55,919 bases of DNA from an uncultured virus (IMG/VR IMGVR_UViG_2061766007_004183) (lineage: Duplodnaviria > Heunggongvirae > Uroviricota > Caudoviricetes), in the IMG/VR virus record IMGVR_UViG_2061766007_004183; one strand, written 5' to 3'. The notes under the pieces are model-generated. The model saw nothing but the letters and a program-made list of their open reading frames with translations, ran no database searches and was not told the DNA's origin. Positions within the stretch are counted from its first letter, which is position 1. Every line of letters begins with the position of its first letter. Shown here piece by piece: positions 5 to 12,261 of the stretch. A program made the position numbers and the translations under genes.

Positions 5-880
5 TTGCAGCACGATCATTTTACCCTCGGCCGCAGTTTCACCCCTGGACAGATGAAAGCCCTGCGCAAAGGAAATGTCCCCCAGGAGATGGAGGACAAG
101 TGGTTCTGGTACATGGAGGGCGATACGCTGTTTGCCCATCGGAGCTGGACCGGATACTGCATCTACAGGATCGACTTTTCACCGGACAATCATCATAAAG
201 TGACCGTCAATCGCGATCCCGAGCAGTATACATGCACCAGCACTGATGAGGATAGGGATCAGCTGAACAAACTCCTCGACTGGTGGACCAAGGACTCATA
301 CGATTATTATCATGAATGGCTGTCCGAGACAGTAGATTCTTTGAAAAAAGCAGGTATGATCAAGGACCAACTGAATGTCGCCGGTCAGGAAGTTGATGCG
401 ATCTTCTTCCACAAACCGTCTGAACCTCACGGTTTCCTGAGTAACTGGCATCCTTCTCCCTTCGACCTCGACGGCGTCCATTTCACTTCCGCTGAACAAT
501 ACATCATGTTCAAGAAGTGCATGCTCTTCGGTGACGTGGCTTCTGCTAAGAAGGTTCTTGCAACAGAAGACACAGAGGAACAGCAAGCCATTGGCCAGAA
601 CGCAAAAGGCTACGTCGGCAAGGTGTGGGAAGGAATGCGTCAGCTTGTTGCCGTTCGCGGTCTGCTTGCGAAGTTCTCCCAGAACGAGGACTTGAAGCAG
701 ATGCTGCTGGATACCGGCGATGCCTGGCTAGTGGAGTGTGCGCACAGAGACATCATCTGGGCTTGCGGCATCCGTCTCAATGAGGATGAGCGTTTTGATT
801 CGAGCAAATGGCGCGGGAAAAACATCCTCGGCTTTGCTCTGATGGAAGTTCGATCAATTCTGCGTGGGGCTAAAGGCTGA
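5..880 (+). CDS. NADAR (YbiA-like) domain protein with an N-terminal EDKWF/HRSWTG domain; probably 5'-truncated
   Basis: C-half has NADAR motifs FLSNWHPSPF, SAEQYIMFKK, AKFSQN..L..MLL.TG, LVE....D.IW..G, WRGKNILG.ALM.VR; frame is open to the window edge. Confidence 0.85.
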   Translation: MQHDHFTLGRSFTPGQMKALRKGNVPQEMEDKWFWYMEGDTLFAHRSWTGYCIYRIDFSPDNHHKVTVNRDPEQYTCTSTDEDRDQLNKLLDWWTKDSYDYYHEWLSETVDSLKKAGMIKDQLNVAGQEVDAIFFHKPSEPHGFLSNWHPSPFDLDGVHFTSAEQYIMFKKCMLFGDVASAKKVLATEDTEEQQAIGQNAKGYVGKVWEGMRQLVAVRGLLAKFSQNEDLKQMLLDTGDAWLVECAHRDIIWACGIRLNEDERFDSSKWRGKNILGFALMEVRSILRGAKG

Positions 881-955
881 CTCTGCGCACCAGCCTTGAA
901 AGGCAACTCGAAACATTATCTGCTCAGGAGAAGCGATAATTTCAGGTAAAGATTT

Positions 956-1717
956 ATGACTAGGAAAAAAGCTCGCTATGGCGATTACAAGAAGCGGCAG
1001 AAGATCCGAACAATTGTAATCGCTGTGATTTGTACTATCGCGATTATTTCTCTCCCGCGGATAATCAGCGCTTTGCGGACCCTTCAAACGCCTAAACCTT
1101 CTGTCCTGGGAACAGGTTCATATTCCGCAACAGACTTCAGTATTCCGCAATACTCCGGGTCAGCTTATGTAGAGATCAATGATAATATTCCCTTTTTCCA
1201 GGAGTCAGATATCACGACTACGGCATATGAAGAATACTGCCCTTTAGACAGACTTGGAAGATGCGGTCCTGCCATAGCCTGCCTCGGGCGTGAACTGATG
1301 CCAACTGAAGAGCGCGGGGAAATCGGCATGATAAGGCCTTCGGGGTGGCACACGGTAAGATATGACGATCTTATCGAGGACAAGTATCTCTATAACCGCT
1401 GCCACCTGATCGCCTATATGCTGGCGGGAGAGAATGACAACGAGCTAAATCTGATCACCGGGACAAGATATATGAATACTGGAGGTATGCTCCCCTTTGA
1501 GATAGAGATCGCAGACTATATCCTGGCGACCGGAAATCATGTGCTTTACAGGGTGTCCCCCTACTACTTTGAAAACGATCTGGTCGCAACTGGGGTGCTT
1601 ATGGAAGCATATTCCGTCGAGGACAACGGTCGGGGGCTGACCTTTAACGTATTTGTCTTTAATGTCCAGCCAGGGATCGTTATCGATTATAAGACCGGAA
1701 ACAGCAGTCGCCGATAA
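956..1717 (+). CDS. Membrane-anchored DNA/RNA non-specific endonuclease (DNA-entry nuclease family)
   Basis: N-terminal TM segment; LDRLGRCG, RPSGW, YNRCHLIAY, NLITGT..MN motifs. Confidence 0.9.
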   Translation: MTRKKARYGDYKKRQKIRTIVIAVICTIAIISLPRIISALRTLQTPKPSVLGTGSYSATDFSIPQYSGSAYVEINDNIPFFQESDITTTAYEEYCPLDRLGRCGPAIACLGRELMPTEERGEIGMIRPSGWHTVRYDDLIEDKYLYNRCHLIAYMLAGENDNELNLITGTRYMNTGGMLPFEIEIADYILATGNHVLYRVSPYYFENDLVATGVLMEAYSVEDNGRGLTFNVFVFNVQPGIVIDYKTGNSSRR

Positions 1718-1768
1718 TCTGCAGGTATTCGTATTTCTTATTATGTCTAGCGCAAGAGAGGTGTCAAA

Positions 1769-3211
1769 ATGGCGAGAAAGCGAATCGAAAACCCGAAAGT
1801 GTTCCTTTCATACGCATGGGGTGAAAAAGAGTACCAAAACATGGTCCTTGCATTTGCCACTCAACTAGTTCGTGATGGAATTGATGTTGTCTTCGATAAA
1901 TGGGATTTGGCTGAAGGAAATGACACAAATGCATTCATGGAAAAGTGCGTAAACGACCCAACTATCACAAATGTGCTGATGCTCCTCGACCCGCTGTATG
2001 CGACTAAAGCAAATGAGCACGCTGGCGGAGTTGGCACTGAGACGCAAATCATATCTGCCAAAGTCTATAGCGAAGTAGAGCAATCCAAGTTTATCCCTGT
2101 GGTGATGAAACGTGATCCTGAAGGAAACGTTTGCAAACCCACTTATCTCCAAACGAGATTGCACTTCGATTTGTCCATTCCTGAACGATATGATGAAGAG
2201 TATAAGAGACTTGTCAAAACACTATATGGCGAAGAAGTGTATCCAAAGCCCGAGTTGGGAAATAAGCCTTCTTGGGTAGAAAAACCAATTGCTGTCAAGC
2301 ACAGAGAATTAGTGACCTATGATACCATAAGAGGCGTCCAACCTAATGCGGTAAAGAGAGGTGCCTTTATTACGTACTTAAAGGAAATCTCTAACGATCT
2401 CATTACGTTTTGTGGTGGTGATATGTCAGGAATCTCCAACCCAAACGATTACATCTCCCAATATGATGAGACCGAGAGTATACGGACAAGGTTTCTGCAA
2501 TTACTGAAATACTCTGGCTATGTTGAGAATAGTCGACAGTTCGTTGCCGACTTTTTTGAGGAAACGGCCAATGGAATTACTCAGGCGAGTGGGAGAGTAG
2601 AACTCGCAAGGATAAGACTCCACGAGTTACTCATATATGTAATCGCATTCTTTCTCAGAGGTAAGGACTATTCTTCCATAGGGTATATCCTTGGAAAAAC
2701 GTATTACAATTGTCGCCGTTCCAACAGCCGTTCATTGGACAGCTTTAAAATGTTCTATAGCGGAAGCGATCATGAAAAGCTTGATATAGCCGTTCGGAAG
2801 CGAGACAACAAGAGATATATCACCGGCACAGGACAGCATTGGTTGGAAACACTGGCAACGGACCTATGTTCAAAAGAGCAATTCATTTTGGCAGATATTA
2901 TTTGTTTCAATTACTCCGTCTACGGAGCCGCTTTCGATGAAACCGGAATATGGTTCCCTATTACTTATATATTTGATTCTGAGTATAATAGTGTTATGGG
3001 TGCTTTCAGCAAAAAGCTCATTTCACGTGAGTATGCACAAGAACTACTTCCTCTGTTTGGATATAAGACTGTGGATGAACTGAAGGCTAAAATGAAATCA
3101 GTAGAAGACAGTCAAAGCGAACGCAGAGAAACAAGGTATTCCGACGCTTTTGAAAGCGCTCCTTTATTATGTGATTTCATTAAGGCTGGAGACGTTGGGA
3201 TTCGTCGATAA
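1769..3211 (+). CDS. SEFIR/TIR-domain protein, candidate anti-phage NADase
   Basis: N-terminus PKVFLSYAW...L..DGIDVVFDKWDL.EG.D...FME, GGVGTE, KFIPVV. Confidence 0.8.
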   Translation: MARKRIENPKVFLSYAWGEKEYQNMVLAFATQLVRDGIDVVFDKWDLAEGNDTNAFMEKCVNDPTITNVLMLLDPLYATKANEHAGGVGTETQIISAKVYSEVEQSKFIPVVMKRDPEGNVCKPTYLQTRLHFDLSIPERYDEEYKRLVKTLYGEEVYPKPELGNKPSWVEKPIAVKHRELVTYDTIRGVQPNAVKRGAFITYLKEISNDLITFCGGDMSGISNPNDYISQYDETESIRTRFLQLLKYSGYVENSRQFVADFFEETANGITQASGRVELARIRLHELLIYVIAFFLRGKDYSSIGYILGKTYYNCRRSNSRSLDSFKMFYSGSDHEKLDIAVRKRDNKRYITGTGQHWLETLATDLCSKEQFILADIICFNYSVYGAAFDETGIWFPITYIFDSEYNSVMGAFSKKLISREYAQELLPLFGYKTVDELKAKMKSVEDSQSERRETRYSDAFESAPLLCDFIKAGDVGIRR

Positions 3212-6664: not shown

Positions 6665-7429
6665 GTGACAGACGTGCGGAATATAATCATTGAAAACCTG
6701 AAAAGAATCGAAGAATCTGAAAACGTACGTATTCTTATGGCCGTAGAATCTGGCAGCAGAGCATGGGGCTTCGCGTCTCCGGACAGCGATTATGACGTCC
6801 GTTTTATCTATGCTCGCCCTGCCGAAGAGTATCTGCGTCTTGACGAGCAGAGGGACGTGATCGAACTGCCTATCAACGATATGCTGGATATCAACGGCTG
6901 GGATATCAATAAGACCCTCCGGCTTCTCTATCGCTCAAACCCGACTCTGTGTGAATGGGCGTCTTCCCCGATTATCTATATGGATAATGGCTTCCTGGAA
7001 GTGATCAGGCCTCTTCTGCCAAAGTATTTCCATTCGAAGAAAGGGCTCTATCACTACCTCAGCATGGCCAAGTCCAATTATCGGGAATTCCTGAAGGGCG
7101 ATGTAGTCAAAACCAAAAAGTATTTCTATGTCCTTCGTCCGATCCTTGCGTGCAAATGGATCCTAGACAAACACAGTCCGCCGCCCATGCCGTTTGAAGA
7201 ACTGGTTGCAGCCGAACTGGATCCGACTTTGAAGCCAGAAATCGACCGGCTCCTGGACATCAAAATGAATGCTCCGGAATTGAAGCTCATACCGCGAATC
7301 GACGCGCTCAACCGCTTTCTAGACGATAGTATTGAAACCGTTGAGCAGGCTCTGGAACAAGCGCCGGATGAAGAGAGAAACAACTGGAGCGAGCTCAACA
7401 GACTATTCCTGGAGATCATCAAGAACTGA
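6665..7429 (+). CDS. Nucleotidyltransferase (YcgL/RlaP-like, Pol-beta superfamily)
   Basis: AVESGSRAWGFASPDSDYDVRFIY, DINGWD, SNPTL.EW, KKYFYVLRP. Confidence 0.9.
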   Translation: MTDVRNIIIENLKRIEESENVRILMAVESGSRAWGFASPDSDYDVRFIYARPAEEYLRLDEQRDVIELPINDMLDINGWDINKTLRLLYRSNPTLCEWASSPIIYMDNGFLEVIRPLLPKYFHSKKGLYHYLSMAKSNYREFLKGDVVKTKKYFYVLRPILACKWILDKHSPPPMPFEELVAAELDPTLKPEIDRLLDIKMNAPELKLIPRIDALNRFLDDSIETVEQALEQAPDEERNNWSELNRLFLEIIKN

Positions 7430-7444
7430 GGGTTCAGCAAGACT

Positions 7445-8191
7445 ATGAGATACTATGTCACAGCCGACATACATGGCTTCTATACGCCGCTTTACAAAGC
7501 ACTGACCGAGGCGGGATTCTTTACGGATACTGAGCCGAATAAGCTCATCGTTCTCGGTGACCTCTTTGATCGCGGCGCGGATGCACTGAAGATGCAGGAA
7601 TTCACCTTAAGCCTGATGGAAGATAATCGGGTCATCCTGATCAAGGGCAATCATGAGGATCTGTTTGTAGACTTGGCCACTAAAGACCACGGGTTAGCAT
7701 ACAGCCATCATGTCTCCAACGGCACATACGATACTGCTCTGCAGTTGACTGGGTTCAGTACGTCTGCGGCCGGGAGAAGGCCTTATGGCTTTGCTGACGC
7801 AGCCAGAAGGACTCCGTTTTTCAAGCAGATCATTCCCTCAATGCTGGATTATTACGAGACGGAGCACTATGTTTTCGTGCATGGCTGGATTCCGTGTGTC
7901 TACGAAAATGGTGAATTCAGCTATATAACAGACTGGCGGAATGCCGGCAAGGACGAGTGGACAAGTGCGCGATGGTATAACGGCATGGAAGCTGCGCAGA
8001 CCTGCCTGGAAGAAAAGACAATCGTATGCGGCCACTGGCATACTTCATATGGGCATTTCATGTTTGAGCACAAAGGGTCTGAGTTTGGCCCGGATGCGGA
8101 TTTCTCGCCCTTCTACGGCAACAGGATCATCGCATTGGACGCATGCACAGCCTTGAGCAGACGGGTCAATGTTGTTGTACTTAAGGACTAG
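7445..8191 (+). CDS. Calcineurin-like metallophosphoesterase
   Basis: ADIHG, LGDLFDRG, KGNHE, FVHG, CGHWH motifs. Confidence 0.9.
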   Translation: MRYYVTADIHGFYTPLYKALTEAGFFTDTEPNKLIVLGDLFDRGADALKMQEFTLSLMEDNRVILIKGNHEDLFVDLATKDHGLAYSHHVSNGTYDTALQLTGFSTSAAGRRPYGFADAARRTPFFKQIIPSMLDYYETEHYVFVHGWIPCVYENGEFSYITDWRNAGKDEWTSARWYNGMEAAQTCLEEKTIVCGHWHTSYGHFMFEHKGSEFGPDADFSPFYGNRIIALDACTALSRRVNVVVLKD

Positions 8192-9168: not shown

Positions 9169-9197
9169 TTTACAAGACAAAATCGGTGTGCTATAGT
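9169..9197 (+). promoter_or_regulatory. SigA-type promoter of the rtcB-tRNA operon
   Basis: TTTACA-17-TATAGT with extended TG. Confidence 0.7.
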
Positions 9198-9237: not shown

Positions 9238-9363
9238 ATGCTTTCGTTTGCTTTTGCTTTGTCATTAAAAGAGCAAGAACGGTTCCAGTCCAGCTATTAT
9301 TGCCTGGGCAATGTCAGTGTGCGCTCATATAAGGCAAAGTATAACGGCAGCATGATCAGATAA
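9238..9363 (+). CDS. 41-aa leader peptide MLSFAFALSLKEQERFQSSYYCLGNVSVRSYKAKYNGSMIR
   Basis: AAAGGA RBS; ATG 9238 to TAA 9363; overlaps the antiterminator strand; below the ORF-track size cut-off. Confidence 0.75.
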   Translation: MLSFAFALSLKEQERFQSSYYCLGNVSVRSYKAKYNGSMIR

Positions 9364-9425
9364 TCCCTTTCGGATAAGATCATAACCATCGGCCGCTTGC
9401 CTTGTATGAGGCAAGCGGCCTTTTT
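9324..9425 (+). promoter_or_regulatory. Transcription attenuator (terminator/antiterminator)
   Basis: Terminator GGCCGCTTGCCT-tgtatg-AGGCAAGCGGCC-TTTTT (9391-9425); CTCATATAAGGCAA (9324-9337) pairs over 14 bp with TTGCCTTGTATGAG (9397-9410). Confidence 0.8.
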
Positions 9426-9453: not shown

Positions 9454-10653
9454 ATGCTTGAAGTCAAAGGAAAAGTGAATACCGCGATTTGCTACGCCAA
9501 GGTCATTGAGAACGAGGCAGTCGAGCAGATCCGGCGCATGTGCGACTACGGCTTCACGGAGGGCAGCCAAATCCGAATCATGCCCGACGTTCACGCCGGC
9601 GCGGGTTGCACGATAGGAACGACGATGACCGTTCTTGATAAGGCTGTTCCCAATGTAGTTGGTGTGGATATCGGTTGCGGCATGTATACCGTACGACTCG
9701 CGGAGCAGGAGATCGATTTTGAAAAGCTGGACGAAGCCGCGCACTTCATTCCCTCCGGCATGAACGTATGGGAAGGCCGCCAAGAACGCTTTGACCTGAC
9801 CGGACTTCGCAGTTACCGCGCCTTAAAAGACACACGACGTCTGGAAAGAAGCCTGGGCACCTTGGGCGGCGGCAACCATTTCATTGAAGTCGACACCGCA
9901 ACTGGCGGAACGAAATATCTTATCATCCACTCCGGCTCCCGCAACCTGGGCAAGCAGGTAGCAGAATACTATCAGCGTTTGGCCATTGATCTGAGCAAAG
10001 GAAAAGCGGAATACTTCGCGAAACGCGATGCTCTGATTGCGGAATACAAGGCTGCCGGACGAAGAGCTGAGATCCAGCAGGCACTGAAAGAACTGAAATG
10101 GAACTCCAAAGAGTCGGAGATACCTGAGGATCTGTGCTTCGTCTACGGTCAATACCTGGATGACTATCTTATCGATGTAGAAATCTGCCAGAGCTTTGCC
10201 CGCAGGAGCCGCGAACTGATGGCGGAGATCCTCCTGCAGCGTAGCGGACTGACGGCGTTGGATTCCTTCCACACCATTCATAATTACATCGACACGAAGG
10301 AAATGATCCTGCGCAAGGGTGCCATTGCCGCCCATGACGGTGAGAAAGTGCTGATTCCCATCAACATGCGCGACGGCAGCGTTTTGGCAGTCGGTAAGGG
10401 CAATCCCGAATGGAATTTCTCTGCACCCCACGGTGCGGGGAGGATCATGTCCAGGACCGCGGCAAAAGCGAATCTGGATATGGAAGAATACCGCAGGGAG
10501 ATGGCCGGCATCTTCACCACTTCCGTGAGCGAGGCCACCATCGACGAAGCGCCCATGGCCTACAAGTCCCTGGAGGATATTATCGGCGTGATCTCAGACA
10601 GTGTCGACGTGATCGAAGTACTGAAACCCATTTACAATTTCAAGGCTGGCTGA
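9454..10653 (+). CDS. rtcB: RtcB family RNA 3'-phosphate/5'-OH ligase
   Basis: MPDVHAG.G..IG, VGVDIGCG, GTLGGGNHFIE, IHSGSR, HNY, RKGA, SAPHGAGR, DEAPMAYK; GGAGGA RBS. Confidence 0.95.
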   Translation: MLEVKGKVNTAICYAKVIENEAVEQIRRMCDYGFTEGSQIRIMPDVHAGAGCTIGTTMTVLDKAVPNVVGVDIGCGMYTVRLAEQEIDFEKLDEAAHFIPSGMNVWEGRQERFDLTGLRSYRALKDTRRLERSLGTLGGGNHFIEVDTATGGTKYLIIHSGSRNLGKQVAEYYQRLAIDLSKGKAEYFAKRDALIAEYKAAGRRAEIQQALKELKWNSKESEIPEDLCFVYGQYLDDYLIDVEICQSFARRSRELMAEILLQRSGLTALDSFHTIHNYIDTKEMILRKGAIAAHDGEKVLIPINMRDGSVLAVGKGNPEWNFSAPHGAGRIMSRTAAKANLDMEEYRREMAGIFTTSVSEATIDEAPMAYKSLEDIIGVISDSVDVIEVLKPIYNFKAG

Positions 10654-10700: not shown

Positions 10701-10955
10701 ATGAATAACATGCCGGTCATAGACATGACCGCCACCGGGATGAATATCACCCGGCTCCGAATAAACGCAGGCCTCACCGTCCGCGATCTTCAGACAATAT
10801 TCGGTTTCAGCACCCCGCAGGCCATCTACAAGTGGCAGCGCGGTGATGCCATGCCCACTCTCGACAATATGCTGGTGCTTGCCGCTGTTTTCGGAGTGAC
10901 GATAGACGATATTCTTGTCGTTCAAAACCCTAACGCGATCCGTGTGATCGCATAA
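10701..10955 (+). CDS. XRE-family helix-turn-helix regulator
   Basis: I.RLR...GLTVRDLQ..FGFSTPQAIYKWQRG..MPTLDN..VLA..FGVTIDDIL. Confidence 0.9.
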   Translation: MNNMPVIDMTATGMNITRLRINAGLTVRDLQTIFGFSTPQAIYKWQRGDAMPTLDNMLVLAAVFGVTIDDILVVQNPNAIRVIA

Positions 10956-10986: not shown

Positions 10987-11063
10987 GGCCCCTTGGTCAA
11001 GCTGGATAAGACGTCGGCCTTTCAAGCCGGAAGCGCTGGGTTCGAGTCCCGCAGGGGTCACCA
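10987..11063 (+). tRNA. tRNA-Glu(TTC)
   Basis: Cloverleaf; anticodon arm TCGGC-CTTTCAA-GCCGG; encoded CCA. Confidence 0.9.
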
Positions 11064-11067
11064 ATAA

Positions 11068-11141
11068 ACCGGATTGGTGTAACGGCAGCACGCCTGGTTC
11101 TGACCCAGGAAGACGTGGTTCAAATCCGTGATCCGGTGCCA
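11068..11141 (+). tRNA. tRNA-Gln(CTG)
   Basis: CCTGG-TTCTGAC-CCAGG; GCCA end. Confidence 0.9.
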
Positions 11142-11144
11142 TAT

Positions 11145-11221
11145 GGTCCCTTAGTCAAGCTGGATAAGACGCCGGCCCCTCAAGCCGGAGGCGTAGGGTT
11201 CGAGTCCCACAGGGATCACCA
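11145..11221 (+). tRNA. tRNA-Glu(CTC), C33
   Basis: CCGGC-CCCTCAA-GCCGG; ACCA end. Confidence 0.88.
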
Positions 11222-11227
11222 TTATTC

Positions 11228-11313
11228 GCTTGCGTGGTGGAATTGGAATACACATCCGGCTTAAGTCCGGATGCCAGACCGGCTTAAGGGTTCAAGTCCC
11301 TTCGCAAGCACCA
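11228..11313 (+). tRNA. tRNA-Leu(TAA)
   Basis: TCCGG-CTTAAGT-CCGGA; long variable arm; ACCA. Confidence 0.9.
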
Positions 11314-11314
11314 T

Positions 11315-11402
11315 GCGCGAGTGGCGGAACAGGTATACGCACCGGCCTCAAGTACCGGAGCCCGGACTGGGCCTGTGAGTTCGAATCTCACCTCGTGCAC
11401 CA
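11315..11402 (+). tRNA. tRNA-Leu(CAA)
   Basis: CCGGC-CTCAAGT-ACCGG (C31-A39 mismatch); long variable arm; ACCA. Confidence 0.88.
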
Positions 11403-11405
11403 TGA

Positions 11406-11480
11406 TCCGGGTTGGTGTAACGGTCAGCACGATCAGCTTTGACCCGATGCGTTGAGGTTCGAATCCTCAACCCGGAGCCA
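11406..11480 (+). tRNA. tRNA-Gln(TTG)
   Basis: ATCAG-CTTTGAC-CCGAT (A30-C40 mismatch); GCCA. Confidence 0.85.
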
Positions 11481-11483
11481 TAT

Positions 11484-11557
11484 GGTCCCGTGGCCAAGAG
11501 GCAAGGCTGCGGATTGCAAATCCGTGATCGTCCGTTCGACTCGGACCGGGACCTCCA
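11484..11557 (+). tRNA. tRNA-Cys(GCA)
   Basis: GCGGA-TTGCAAA-TCCGT; U73 discriminator, TCCA. Confidence 0.9.
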
Positions 11558-11561
11558 TAAT

Positions 11562-11650
11562 GCAGGATGATTCCGGGCGGCCTCGGAACCGGTCTAGAAA
11601 ACCGTGGGCAACAGTGATGTTGTGGGGATCGACACCTCCGTCCTGCGCCA
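11562..11650 (+). tRNA. Non-canonical 8/4 tRNA-Sec-like 'allo-tRNA', anticodon AGA, Ser identity
   Basis: 8-bp acceptor GCAGGATG/CGTCCTGC, 6-7-bp D-stem with 4-nt loop, CGGT-CTAGAAA-ACCG, 6-bp variable stem, 4-bp T-stem GGGG-ATCGACA-CCTC, G73-CCA. Confidence 0.75.
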
Positions 11651-11659
11651 AAATAACAT

Positions 11660-11749
11660 GCTGCGATATCCTAATTTGGTAAGGAACCTCCCCGCTAAGG
11701 AGGCGGTGCTTCACGGCCCATGGGCGTTCGAATCGCTCTCGCAGCGCCA
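11660..11749 (+). tRNA. tRNA-Ser(GCT), C33
   Basis: CCTCC-CCGCTAA-GGAGG; long variable region; GCCA. Confidence 0.82.
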
Positions 11750-11753
11750 ATAT

Positions 11754-11839
11754 GCACAGGTGGTGGAATTGGAATACGCGCCAGGCTAAGGACCTGATCC
11801 CTCTGTGGATTGCGGGTTCGAGACCCGCCCTGTGCACCA
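11754..11839 (+). tRNA. tRNA-Leu(AAG), A34 anticodon
   Basis: CCAGG-CTAAGGA-CCTGA; long variable arm; ACCA. Confidence 0.85.
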
Positions 11840-11842
11840 TAT

Positions 11843-11918
11843 GCGCTTTTAGCTCAGTTGGTAGAGCAGCAGCCTTTTAAGCCGCAGGTCGTGGGTTCGA
11901 GCCCCGCAAAGCGCACCA
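11843..11918 (+). tRNA. tRNA-Lys(TTT)
   Basis: GCAGC-CTTTTAA-GCCGC (A29-C41 mismatch); ACCA. Confidence 0.88.
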
Positions 11919-11922
11919 CCAT

Positions 11923-11999
11923 GTCCGCGTAGCTCAGTCTGGCAGAGCATCGCTCCTATTTGGAGCGCCAAGTCACCGGTTCAAATCCGGCCGCGGACG
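11923..11999 (+). ncRNA. tRNA-like RNA or pseudo-tRNA (aberrant anticodon arm, no encoded CCA)
   Basis: Acceptor GTCCGCG/CGCGGAC, D-arm GCTC..GAGC and T-loop TTCAAAT present; anticodon arm CGCTC-CTATTTG-GAGCG; followed by GTACCG. Confidence 0.6.
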
Positions 12000-12005
12000 T
12001 ACCGT

Positions 12006-12081
12006 GGGATCTTAGCTCAGTTGGTAGAGCGGCAGGTTGAAGCCCTGCGCGTATCTGGTTCGAATCCGGAAGATCCCACCA
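12006..12081 (+). tRNA. tRNA-Phe(GAA), G37
   Basis: GCAGG-TTGAAGC-CCTGC; ACCA. Confidence 0.9.
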
Positions 12082-12085
12082 CAAT

Positions 12086-12171
12086 GCACAGATGGCGGAA
12101 TGGTATACGCTCCAGTTTCAGGAACTGGTGTCCTCCGGGATGTGCGAGTTCGAGTCTCGCTCTGTGCACCA
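12086..12171 (+). tRNA. tRNA-Leu(CAG)
   Basis: CCAGT-TTCAGGA-ACTGG; long variable arm; ACCA. Confidence 0.9.
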
Positions 12172-12176
12172 TATAT

Positions 12177-12261
12177 GGGGGAATAGCCAAGTGGCCAAAG
12201 GCGCCTGACTGTAAATCAGGTGGTTTATCCTTCAGTGGTTCAAATCCACTTTCCCCCACCA
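12177..12261 (+). tRNA. tRNA-Tyr(GTA)
   Basis: CCTGA-CTGTAAA-TCAGG; ACCA. Confidence 0.9.

Follow-up and report, generated by a model that had tools for sequence, protein, structure and literature searches.

What does a tRNA with the outline of tRNA-Sec, a serine anticodon and a position in the middle of a tRNA array do for the element that carries it? Such a gene lies in the stretch of DNA analysed here (the window, 55,919 nucleotides). tRNAs of the (8/4) tRNA-Ser type, with eight base pairs in the acceptor stem and four in the T-stem, have been recorded in phages, proteobacteria and bovine rumen Clostridia, and other 8/4 allo-tRNAs inserted serine in E. coli (Mukai 2017, PMC5389517).

Fold of the tRNA

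The stretch from 11562 to 11650 is confirmed as a real 8/4-folded tRNA-Ser gene of the allo-tRNA type. Its parts, with the support for each in brackets, are as follows.

11562..11650, + strand: (8/4) tRNA-Ser(AGA) of allo-tRNA type, 89 nt including the encoded CCA (fold and homologues)
11562..11569, + strand: 5' strand of the 8-bp acceptor stem, paired with 11639-11646 (homologue alignment)
11572..11587, + strand: D-arm, 6-bp stem with CGGC tetraloop (6 of 6 pairs changed on both sides)
11589..11606, + strand: anticodon arm, 4 bp, a bulged base and 1 bp, with AGA at 11596-11598 (alignment)
11608..11623, + strand: long variable arm, 6 bp and a tetraloop (5 of 6 pairs changed on both sides)
11624..11638, + strand: T-arm, 4-bp stem and loop AUCGACA with A54 (sequence and homologue alignment)
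11639..11650, + strand: 3' half of the acceptor helix, G73 (11647) and CCA (11648-11650) (homologue alignment)

A8 and U9 link the acceptor stem to the D-stem (11572-11577 with 11582-11587), whose six pairs include one G.U. The anticodon loop, 11594-11600, reads C32 U33 A34 G35 A36 A37 A38, the variable stem (11608-11613 with 11618-11623) is closed by a GUGA loop, and the T-stem (11624-11627 with 11635-11638) again has one G.U among its four pairs. The 2:71 pair is C-G, in place of the G2-C71 that is usual in bacterial tRNA-Ser. The anticodon stem has an irregularity that the original prediction had missed: four base pairs are followed by the unpaired U11605, the pair C11589-G11606 and an A.G apposition. 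Among the 50 distinct family members described below, a pair of the C11589-G11606 type is formed with the bulge in 49 and without it in one, and the last D-loop base (the pyrimidine at 20, by inferred numbering) is C in 47 and U in 3. The same irregular stem occurs in the rumen sequences of Mukai 2017.

The original prediction had described an 8-bp acceptor stem, a 4-bp T-stem, a long D-stem with a 4-nt loop and a long variable arm, all of which are borne out by the sequence and the fold of its homologues; the predicted G73, T-loop AUCGACA with A54 and anticodon AGA can be read directly in the letters. The minimum free energy fold of the single sequence is also the 8/4 cloverleaf. Its z-score is weak (-1.04, with 31 of 200 shuffles folding equally well), and support for the fold is therefore taken from the homologues. 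The proposed covariance-model comparison with SelC placed the tRNA under the threshold of the Rfam tRNA-Sec model RF01852 (44.4 bits, E 5e-8, cut-off 47), while our own covariance model R1, partly built from this very tRNA, gave 107 bits. The gene was missed by ARAGORN at default settings and by Rfam at gathering thresholds; since standard scanners miss the fold, counts of A34 tRNAs are likely too low.

A conserved family of 8/4 tRNA-Ser

Searches with T-arm patterns yielded 9 loci in GTDB genomes, titled Oscillospiraceae, Clostridiales or Clostridia, 6 in viral contigs and 64 in metagenomes. With the window's copy this makes 80 loci, which are not independent counts, as metagenome loci overlap some MAG and viral loci; removal of the incomplete L050 left 79 full-length copies, of which 50 are distinct. 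The T-arm and the 3' acceptor bases are fixed by the search patterns, so the T-arm cannot covary among the 50. RNAalifold, run unprompted on the 50 distinct members, returned the same 8/4 structure, with 16 of 28 pairs changed on both sides. Under the 8/4 model itself, standard pairs make up 98.8% of pair cells, as against roughly 40-50% paired when the pairing partners are slid as a control, and both sides have changed in 17 of 29 pairs. In more distant 8/4 relatives, which our own model detected, the eighth acceptor pair and three of the four T-stem pairs vary in a compensatory manner; the eighth pair is G-C in 10, C-G in 3, A-U in 2, U-A in 1 and unpaired in 2 of 18 distinct sequences, in an alignment that was fitted to the model and includes two tRNAs with a GUA anticodon. 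All 79 full-length copies have G73 and CCA; in L001-L009, these bases were partly set by the search pattern. The 8/4 structure is thus supported by compensatory change across the 50 distinct members.

The canonical 7/5 tRNA-Ser fold was rejected. It pairs 91.8% of cells, its additional fifth T-stem pair is mismatched in 50 of 50 members, and column 8 is an invariant, paired G in place of U8; as the original prediction implied, the canonical fold is not the better one. The tRNA is likewise intact in the homologous arrays, as that prediction required, and the same 98.8% of intact pair cells set aside a pseudogene or decaying selC. A role in the selenocysteine pathway, or descent as a decaying selC remnant, is very improbable. 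The best Rfam match is indeed tRNA-Sec and the D-arm is Sec-like, but tRNA-Sec needs a 13-bp branch (8/5 or 9/4) or an 8/4 branch with a 51a bulge, whereas this tRNA has a 12-bp 8/4 branch without the bulge, the UCA anticodon occurs in none of the 50 members, and SelA did not exceed the cut-off in any of the five incomplete host genomes.

Other searches delimit the family. The exact 29-nt pattern had no match in genome contigs, and blastn against phage (50,697) and plasmid (72,556) records gave none either. A 13-nt T-arm pattern matched 56 of 401 genomes; among the 30 loci inspected only the known tRNA was genuine, and the others resemble coding sequence. An HTH search of the viral contigs gave nothing beyond one known locus.

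The array, its neighbours and its hosts

The tRNA is the eighth of 15 units in an array that is preceded by genes for RNA repair and regulation.

6665..8191, + strand: RlaP nucleotidyltransferase and calcineurin-like phosphoesterase genes (Pfam PF10127, PF00149)
9454..10653, + strand: rtcB RNA ligase gene (Pfam PF01139, E 2.9e-55)
10701..10955, + strand: small Cro/C1-type HTH gene directly before the array (Pfam HTH_3)
10987..12261, + strand: tRNA array with Glu x2, Gln x2, Leu x4, Cys, the 8/4 Ser, Ser(GCU), Lys, an aberrant unit, Phe and Tyr (ARAGORN, Rfam and reading)

This arrangement, in some loci without rtcB, recurs in gut Clostridia. Of 51 loci that include 1.5 kb or more of upstream DNA, 37 have an HTH gene ahead of the tRNA (AGA 25, UGA 10, CGA 2), and the other 14 are for the most part UGA copies from phage-like contigs. 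Of the 33 HTH loci that extend at least 2.8 kb upstream, 27 contain rtcB, and the RlaP and phosphoesterase genes adjoin the array in several homologous loci. The 8/4 tRNA had been called the array's only UCN reader, which agrees with the finding that ARAGORN detects a second UCN tRNA in just 1 of 79 loci (L022), many of which are partial. In the HTH arrays L106-L109, no UCN tRNA was seen over a distance of about 1.5 kb, and such arrays therefore need not contain a UCN reader; in the smaller HTH arrays L107 (1878-1966) and L109 (2243-2328), an 8/4 tRNA-Ser with a GCU anticodon is found.

Several array members are unusual in their own right. The unit at 11922-12004 is tRNA-like; its anticodon stem has 6 bp and its loop 5 nt, and it lacks a clean CCA. 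ARAGORN names it Asn(att), it folds strongly (z -4.0), it is present in one other full array, and it can be read as a pseudogene or a decoy. Ser(GCU) at 11660-11749 has a 7/5 fold and C33, and was missed by Rfam at the gathering score. Further loop oddities are C33 in Glu(CUC), in 7 of 22 Leu(CAA) and in 6 of 27 Tyr copies, and G37 in Phe(GAA) in 16 of 16 distinct array copies. The phage-like contigs L010-L016 carry two or three 8/4 tRNAs each, including Ser(GCU) beside the UGA copy.

The window belongs to a 117.9-kb record with genes for a recombinase, a primase, RecE/RecD, ParB and defence; its RNA-repair genes are RlaP, phosphoesterases, Thg1, a kinase-like AAA_33 protein and RtcB. No virion gene occurs among the subset of its ORFs that was scanned, and the record, filed as a virus, looks like a defence and repair island on an integrative element. 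The segments G000:C1:1610-11905 and 27111-56422 encode Thg1, the AAA_33 kinase, an ADP-ribosylglycohydrolase, a WYL protein, a vWA/AAA pair and Shedu, together with GmrSD, an Eco57I-type methylase and SbcCD. A NADAR protein, a non-specific endonuclease and a TIR/SEFIR protein follow one another at window positions 5-3211. Just upstream of the window, at G000:C1:57517-61800 (L118), lies a second RlaP-phosphoesterase-leader-rtcB-HTH copy without a tRNA array, whose leader is nearly identical to the window's.

Four public runs matched, of which one is RNA (share 0.06), and three were compared. On the array, the RNA run supplies two contigs of 151 nt and depth 4 (11635-11785, identical, and 11792-11943), which cover 16 nt of the 8/4 tRNA, leave its anticodon outside and are too thin to show transcription; the same run also has two weaker pieces on a 19.9-kb control stretch.

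Canonical Ser-UCN tRNAs, two or three in number, are present in four of five hosts: GGA and UGA in G002, GGA, UGA and CGA in G003 and G005, and GGA and CGA in G004, with none seen in G001. AGA is not among the Ser tRNAs found in the five genomes. The 8/4 tRNA itself is patchily distributed. Among 151 genomes of the family, with 29 candidates scored in each, it reaches full score in 2, and among 400 class genomes (G521 left out) in 1, the centre genome being included in both counts. The 8/4 tRNA-Ser is therefore accessory: it adds to the hosts' canonical Ser tRNAs and is no genomic replacement for them.

A leader whose codons match the tRNAs of the array

Upstream of rtcB lies a short reading frame with the elements of a putative attenuator.

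9169..9197, + strand: predicted sigma-70-like promoter match, 10 of 12 with a TG motif (3 such matches found in the region, 2.8 expected by chance)
9238..9363, + strand: leader ORF of 41 codons behind a GAAAGGA ribosome site (conservation and codon match)
9325..9338, + strand: predicted antiterminator arm that pairs with 9397-9410 and overlaps the conserved S-Y-K-A-K codons (fold)
9391..9425, + strand: intrinsic-terminator-like hairpin of 13 pairs with a T run, ahead of rtcB (fold)

A leader arm able to pair with a terminator is the established layout of a ribosome-stalling attenuator, and the S-Y-K-A-K arm with its terminator is predicted, from folding and conservation, to have this layout. 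The conserved leader with its GAAAGGA site was found in 35 loci. When the codons upstream of the S-Y-K-A-K arm are considered, the leader of the same locus offers a readable codon to 92% of the array's other tRNAs. Random codons give 58% (70% at most in 2000 draws) and swapped leaders 84%, with 0 of 2000 swaps reaching 92%; the test covers 22 distinct leader/array pairs, and the swap ignores the shared ancestry of leaders and arrays. In the window, this holds for 13 of 13 other array tRNAs. The leader codons act like a checklist of the array's tRNAs and vary with array content from locus to locus, which is probably the larger novelty of the locus.

Serine is on this list throughout, with a UCN codon in the sensing part of 35 of 35 leaders. 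The window's leader contains TCG, TCA and TCC, all three of which the original prediction had named.

Variation of the anticodon

The 50 distinct members comprise 24 with an AGA, 24 with a UGA and 2 with a CGA anticodon; G never occurs at N34. N33 is U in 23 and C in 27, and 20 of the 24 AGA members lack the U33 that is near-universal in tRNAs. In contrast to these positions, G35, A36, A37 and A38 are invariant in all 50, though they lie outside the search patterns. At least 11 changes at N34 are needed on a poorly resolved tree, and L033 and L072 differ at N34 alone. The anticodon flips repeatedly while staying within the Ser box. An anticodon held in the Ser UCN box on a serine-type body argues for a working tRNA-Ser.

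The view that N33 and N34 are hypervariable was discarded: each has undergone 12 changes, a rate about that of other unpaired positions (9-17). In near-identical pairs, which are not independent of one another, the N34 differences are 7 A/U, 1 C/U and 0 A/G, whereas 77 of 113 differences in the other columns are transitions. A binomial test for the missing N34 transitions, with 11 changes, gives p values from 0.23 to 0.006 depending on the assumed transition share, and is treated as a hint because it fails if recombination spread one A34. The absence of G34 and the rarity of C34 run counter to the usual excess of transitions and hint at a preference for broad readers; recombination could also explain them.

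Decoding range and possible alternatives

As to how many UCN codons the tRNA reads, the evidence points both ways. An AGA tRNA in E. coli read UCU at 19.7% and UCC at 1.4%, with UCA and UCG below detection, in an assay that used another tRNA body and competition with native tRNAs (PMC11066159); an in vitro study on a Ser backbone agrees, as cited there. E. coli serX-AGA matured unmodified and without fitness cost (bioRxiv 10.64898/2026.05.15.725136), and a 2026 preprint describes the near-absence of unmodified A34 tRNAs as a paradox. It is quite improbable that a broadened host TadA converts A34 to inosine, which would allow reading of UCU, UCC and UCA like the eukaryotic tRNA-Ser(IGA). A TadA-like deaminase match (PF14437) is present in five of five host genomes, TCC occurs in 20 of 20 leaders of AGA arrays, and the arrays carry Leu(AAG), which is edited in some Firmicutes (PMC11472039). 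TCC is, however, also present in 8 of 9 leaders of UGA arrays, engineered AGA tRNAs stay unmodified in E. coli, and the widespread lack of U33 among AGA members also tells against editing. The broadened S. pyogenes TadA motif is YUAMGRA (PMC11472039), which the loop CUAGAAA misfits, while the array's Leu(AAG) fits it in 16 of 16 distinct copies and serves as an internal positive. Since the loop misfits and Leu(AAG) fits, the A34 of the 8/4 tRNA probably stays unmodified, as judged from the loop sequence.

A wider role, along the lines of the original prediction, has also been considered. C32/C33 and the bulged stem would help A34 to read all four UCN codons, and its alien shape would let the tRNA escape nucleases that destroy the host's three Ser-UCN tRNAs. 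This is a tentative possibility. Each array has one UCN tRNA, whereas 28 of 29 distinct leaders have two or three different UCN codons, and the preference for A or U at N34 (48 of 50), with no A/G differences in near-identical pairs, is consistent with broad reading; recombination between arrays could inflate the number of N34 changes, and the rate of change at N33 and N34 does not exceed that of unpaired bases elsewhere. Of the leaders of AGA arrays, 12 of 20 contain TCG, as against 0 of 9 for UGA arrays (Fisher p 0.003); for TCA the figures are 8 of 20 and 8 of 9, respectively, but neither link is significant after correction for ancestry, which leaves five independent pairs (for TCG, none contrary, sign test p 0.125-1). 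The measured AGA tRNA, moreover, barely reads beyond UCU. The leader is presumably read first by host tRNAs, in hosts with canonical Ser GGA, UGA and CGA, so that coverage of the whole UCN box by the 8/4 tRNA is unproven; weak wobble might matter more once competing native tRNAs are destroyed. As for evasion, C33 occurs in 27 of 50 members and in 15 of 23 distinct array copies of the neighbouring Ser(GCU), and phage tRNAs with altered loops have been proposed or shown to evade nucleases (PMC10264068). Against it, VapC cuts Ser tRNAs, including AGA, at the anticodon GA (PMC10264068), which is invariant here, and the Anabaena array tRNAs are partly cut while the housekeeping ones tested are uncut (PMC8421152). 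Judged from C33, A54, the bulge and RtcB, nuclease resistance is plausible. Both whole-box reading and inosine are refinements of the main reading, set out below, and not alternatives to it.

An alternative is that the RNA is made, and perhaps charged, mainly as a nuclease sponge or RtcB substrate. C33, A54 and the bulged stem are atypical of efficient decoders, a sponge has been suggested for the Anabaena array (PMC8421152), and some allo-tRNAs are inactive in E. coli translation (PMC5389517). This structured decoy is improbable: in all 50 members, G35 and A36 agree with the body's serine identity, whereas most non-cognate allo-tRNAs have scattered anticodons (35 codons; PMC5389517). A decoy for Ser nucleases could likewise keep GA.

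Comparison with known systems

The original prediction had presented the tRNA as an (8/4) allo-tRNA with a cognate Ser anticodon, and this identity holds; its novelty does not, as the cognate Ser-AGA rumen type is already in Mukai 2017. The supplement of that paper (PMC5389517) has 17 "allo-tRNASer" entries, two of them from rumen. The sequence of row 663 (sheet 1) has an AGA loop and differs by eye from the window's tRNA at 7 of 89 positions, four of which make up two compensated V-stem pairs, the others including a D-stem G-C to G.U change and N33; that of row 682 equals, by eye, locus L008. The anticodon labels of the two rows (UGA, AGA) look exchanged relative to the printed sequences. In the text of Mukai 2017, the rumen entries stand as two sequences without genomic context or functional test, and that text mentions neither the array with leader, rtcB and HTH gene nor the 24/24/2 split of anticodons, the switch between U33 and C33 or the bulge in the stem. 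The 8/4 tRNA-Ser(AGA) is thus a member of an already catalogued group, and its genomic context is new. No description of the operon or of the anticodon pattern was found in the literature searched, in which subscription papers are mostly uncovered.

The closest counterpart in organisation is the trn operon of Anabaena PCC 7120, an L-type array (PMC8421152), which shares an accessory array, a linked or co-regulated rtcB and a proposed role in translational stress; 23 of its 26 tRNAs are charged. Its control operates through promoter repeats and the repressor TrcR, whereas a codon-rich leader and a terminator are predicted here. L-arrays mostly add no new anticodons, in contrast to AGA, which is not seen among the host Ser tRNAs. 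Patchy spread together with rtcB linkage, by which L-type stress arrays are recognised, is found for the present arrays as well. The string "Clostridi" is absent from the main text of PMC8421152.

With tRNA-Sec (RF01852) and the SelC* tRNA-Cys, the 8/4 tRNA shares the long D-stem with a tetraloop, the long variable arm and the 4-bp T-stem, and differs in its 8/4 branch without the 51a bulge, G73, a Ser sense anticodon and the lack of a detected SelA in its hosts. Bacterial Leu-AAG and Thr-AGU of lactic acid bacteria likewise have A34 in a four-codon box in Firmicutes; they replace a chromosomal G34 isoacceptor, whereas the 8/4 tRNA-Ser is accessory and interchanges with U34. Phage anti-defence tRNAs (PMC10264068; T5 tRNAs against PARIS and retrons) are similarly mobile, redundant with the host and atypical in the anticodon arm, and close UGA relatives of the 8/4 tRNA are found in the phage-like contigs L010-L016. 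Unlike those tRNAs, the window's array sits on a defence and RNA-repair island and not among virion genes, as far as the scanned subset of ORFs extends.

Proposed role and significance

The analysis establishes the 8/4 fold, an anticodon that belongs to the Ser box, linkage to the leader, the HTH gene and rtcB, and the match of leader codons to the array. Beyond them, the 8/4 tRNA is probably an inducible spare tRNA-Ser, the only UCN-box tRNA of a mobile tRNA/RtcB array that is predicted to be switched on when ribosomes run short of intact tRNAs and stall. If host tRNAs were damaged or scarce, a ribosome would stall in the first 25 or so codons of the leader, which would free 9325-9338 to pair with 9397-9410; the terminator would then fail to form, and rtcB, the HTH gene and the array would be transcribed. 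The 8/4 tRNA would be processed and charged with serine by the host SerRS, which would recognise the long variable arm and G73. Because 8 + 4 gives an ordinary 12-bp branch, carriage by EF-Tu is proposed, and the charged tRNA would help to restore serine decoding. With an unmodified A34 it would read UCU well and UCC weakly, and UCA and UCG poorly or once the host's own tRNAs are gone; its efficiency may be reduced by C33, seen in 27 of 50 members, and by the bulge in the anticodon stem.

A bolder version joins these elements into a mobile rescue operon of gut Clostridia, in which the leader serves as a codon checklist and cutting of host tRNAs releases RtcB and spares, among them a Sec-shaped tRNA-Ser. 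With unmodified A34, C/U33 and a bulged stem, this tRNA would cover every UCN codon and evade the nucleases specific for Ser tRNAs. In this full form the version is doubtful. If it is true, an allo-tRNA would have a natural role for the first time, and selection for an unmodified A34 would have an example from nature. Mukai 2017 (PMC5389517) left the function of these tRNAs open, and the array context would give them a testable natural job, while the regulatory context indicates when to look for the RNA. The arrays also offer a natural family with equal numbers of A34 and U34 members, with a pair of single-base variants, L033 and L072, already in existence.
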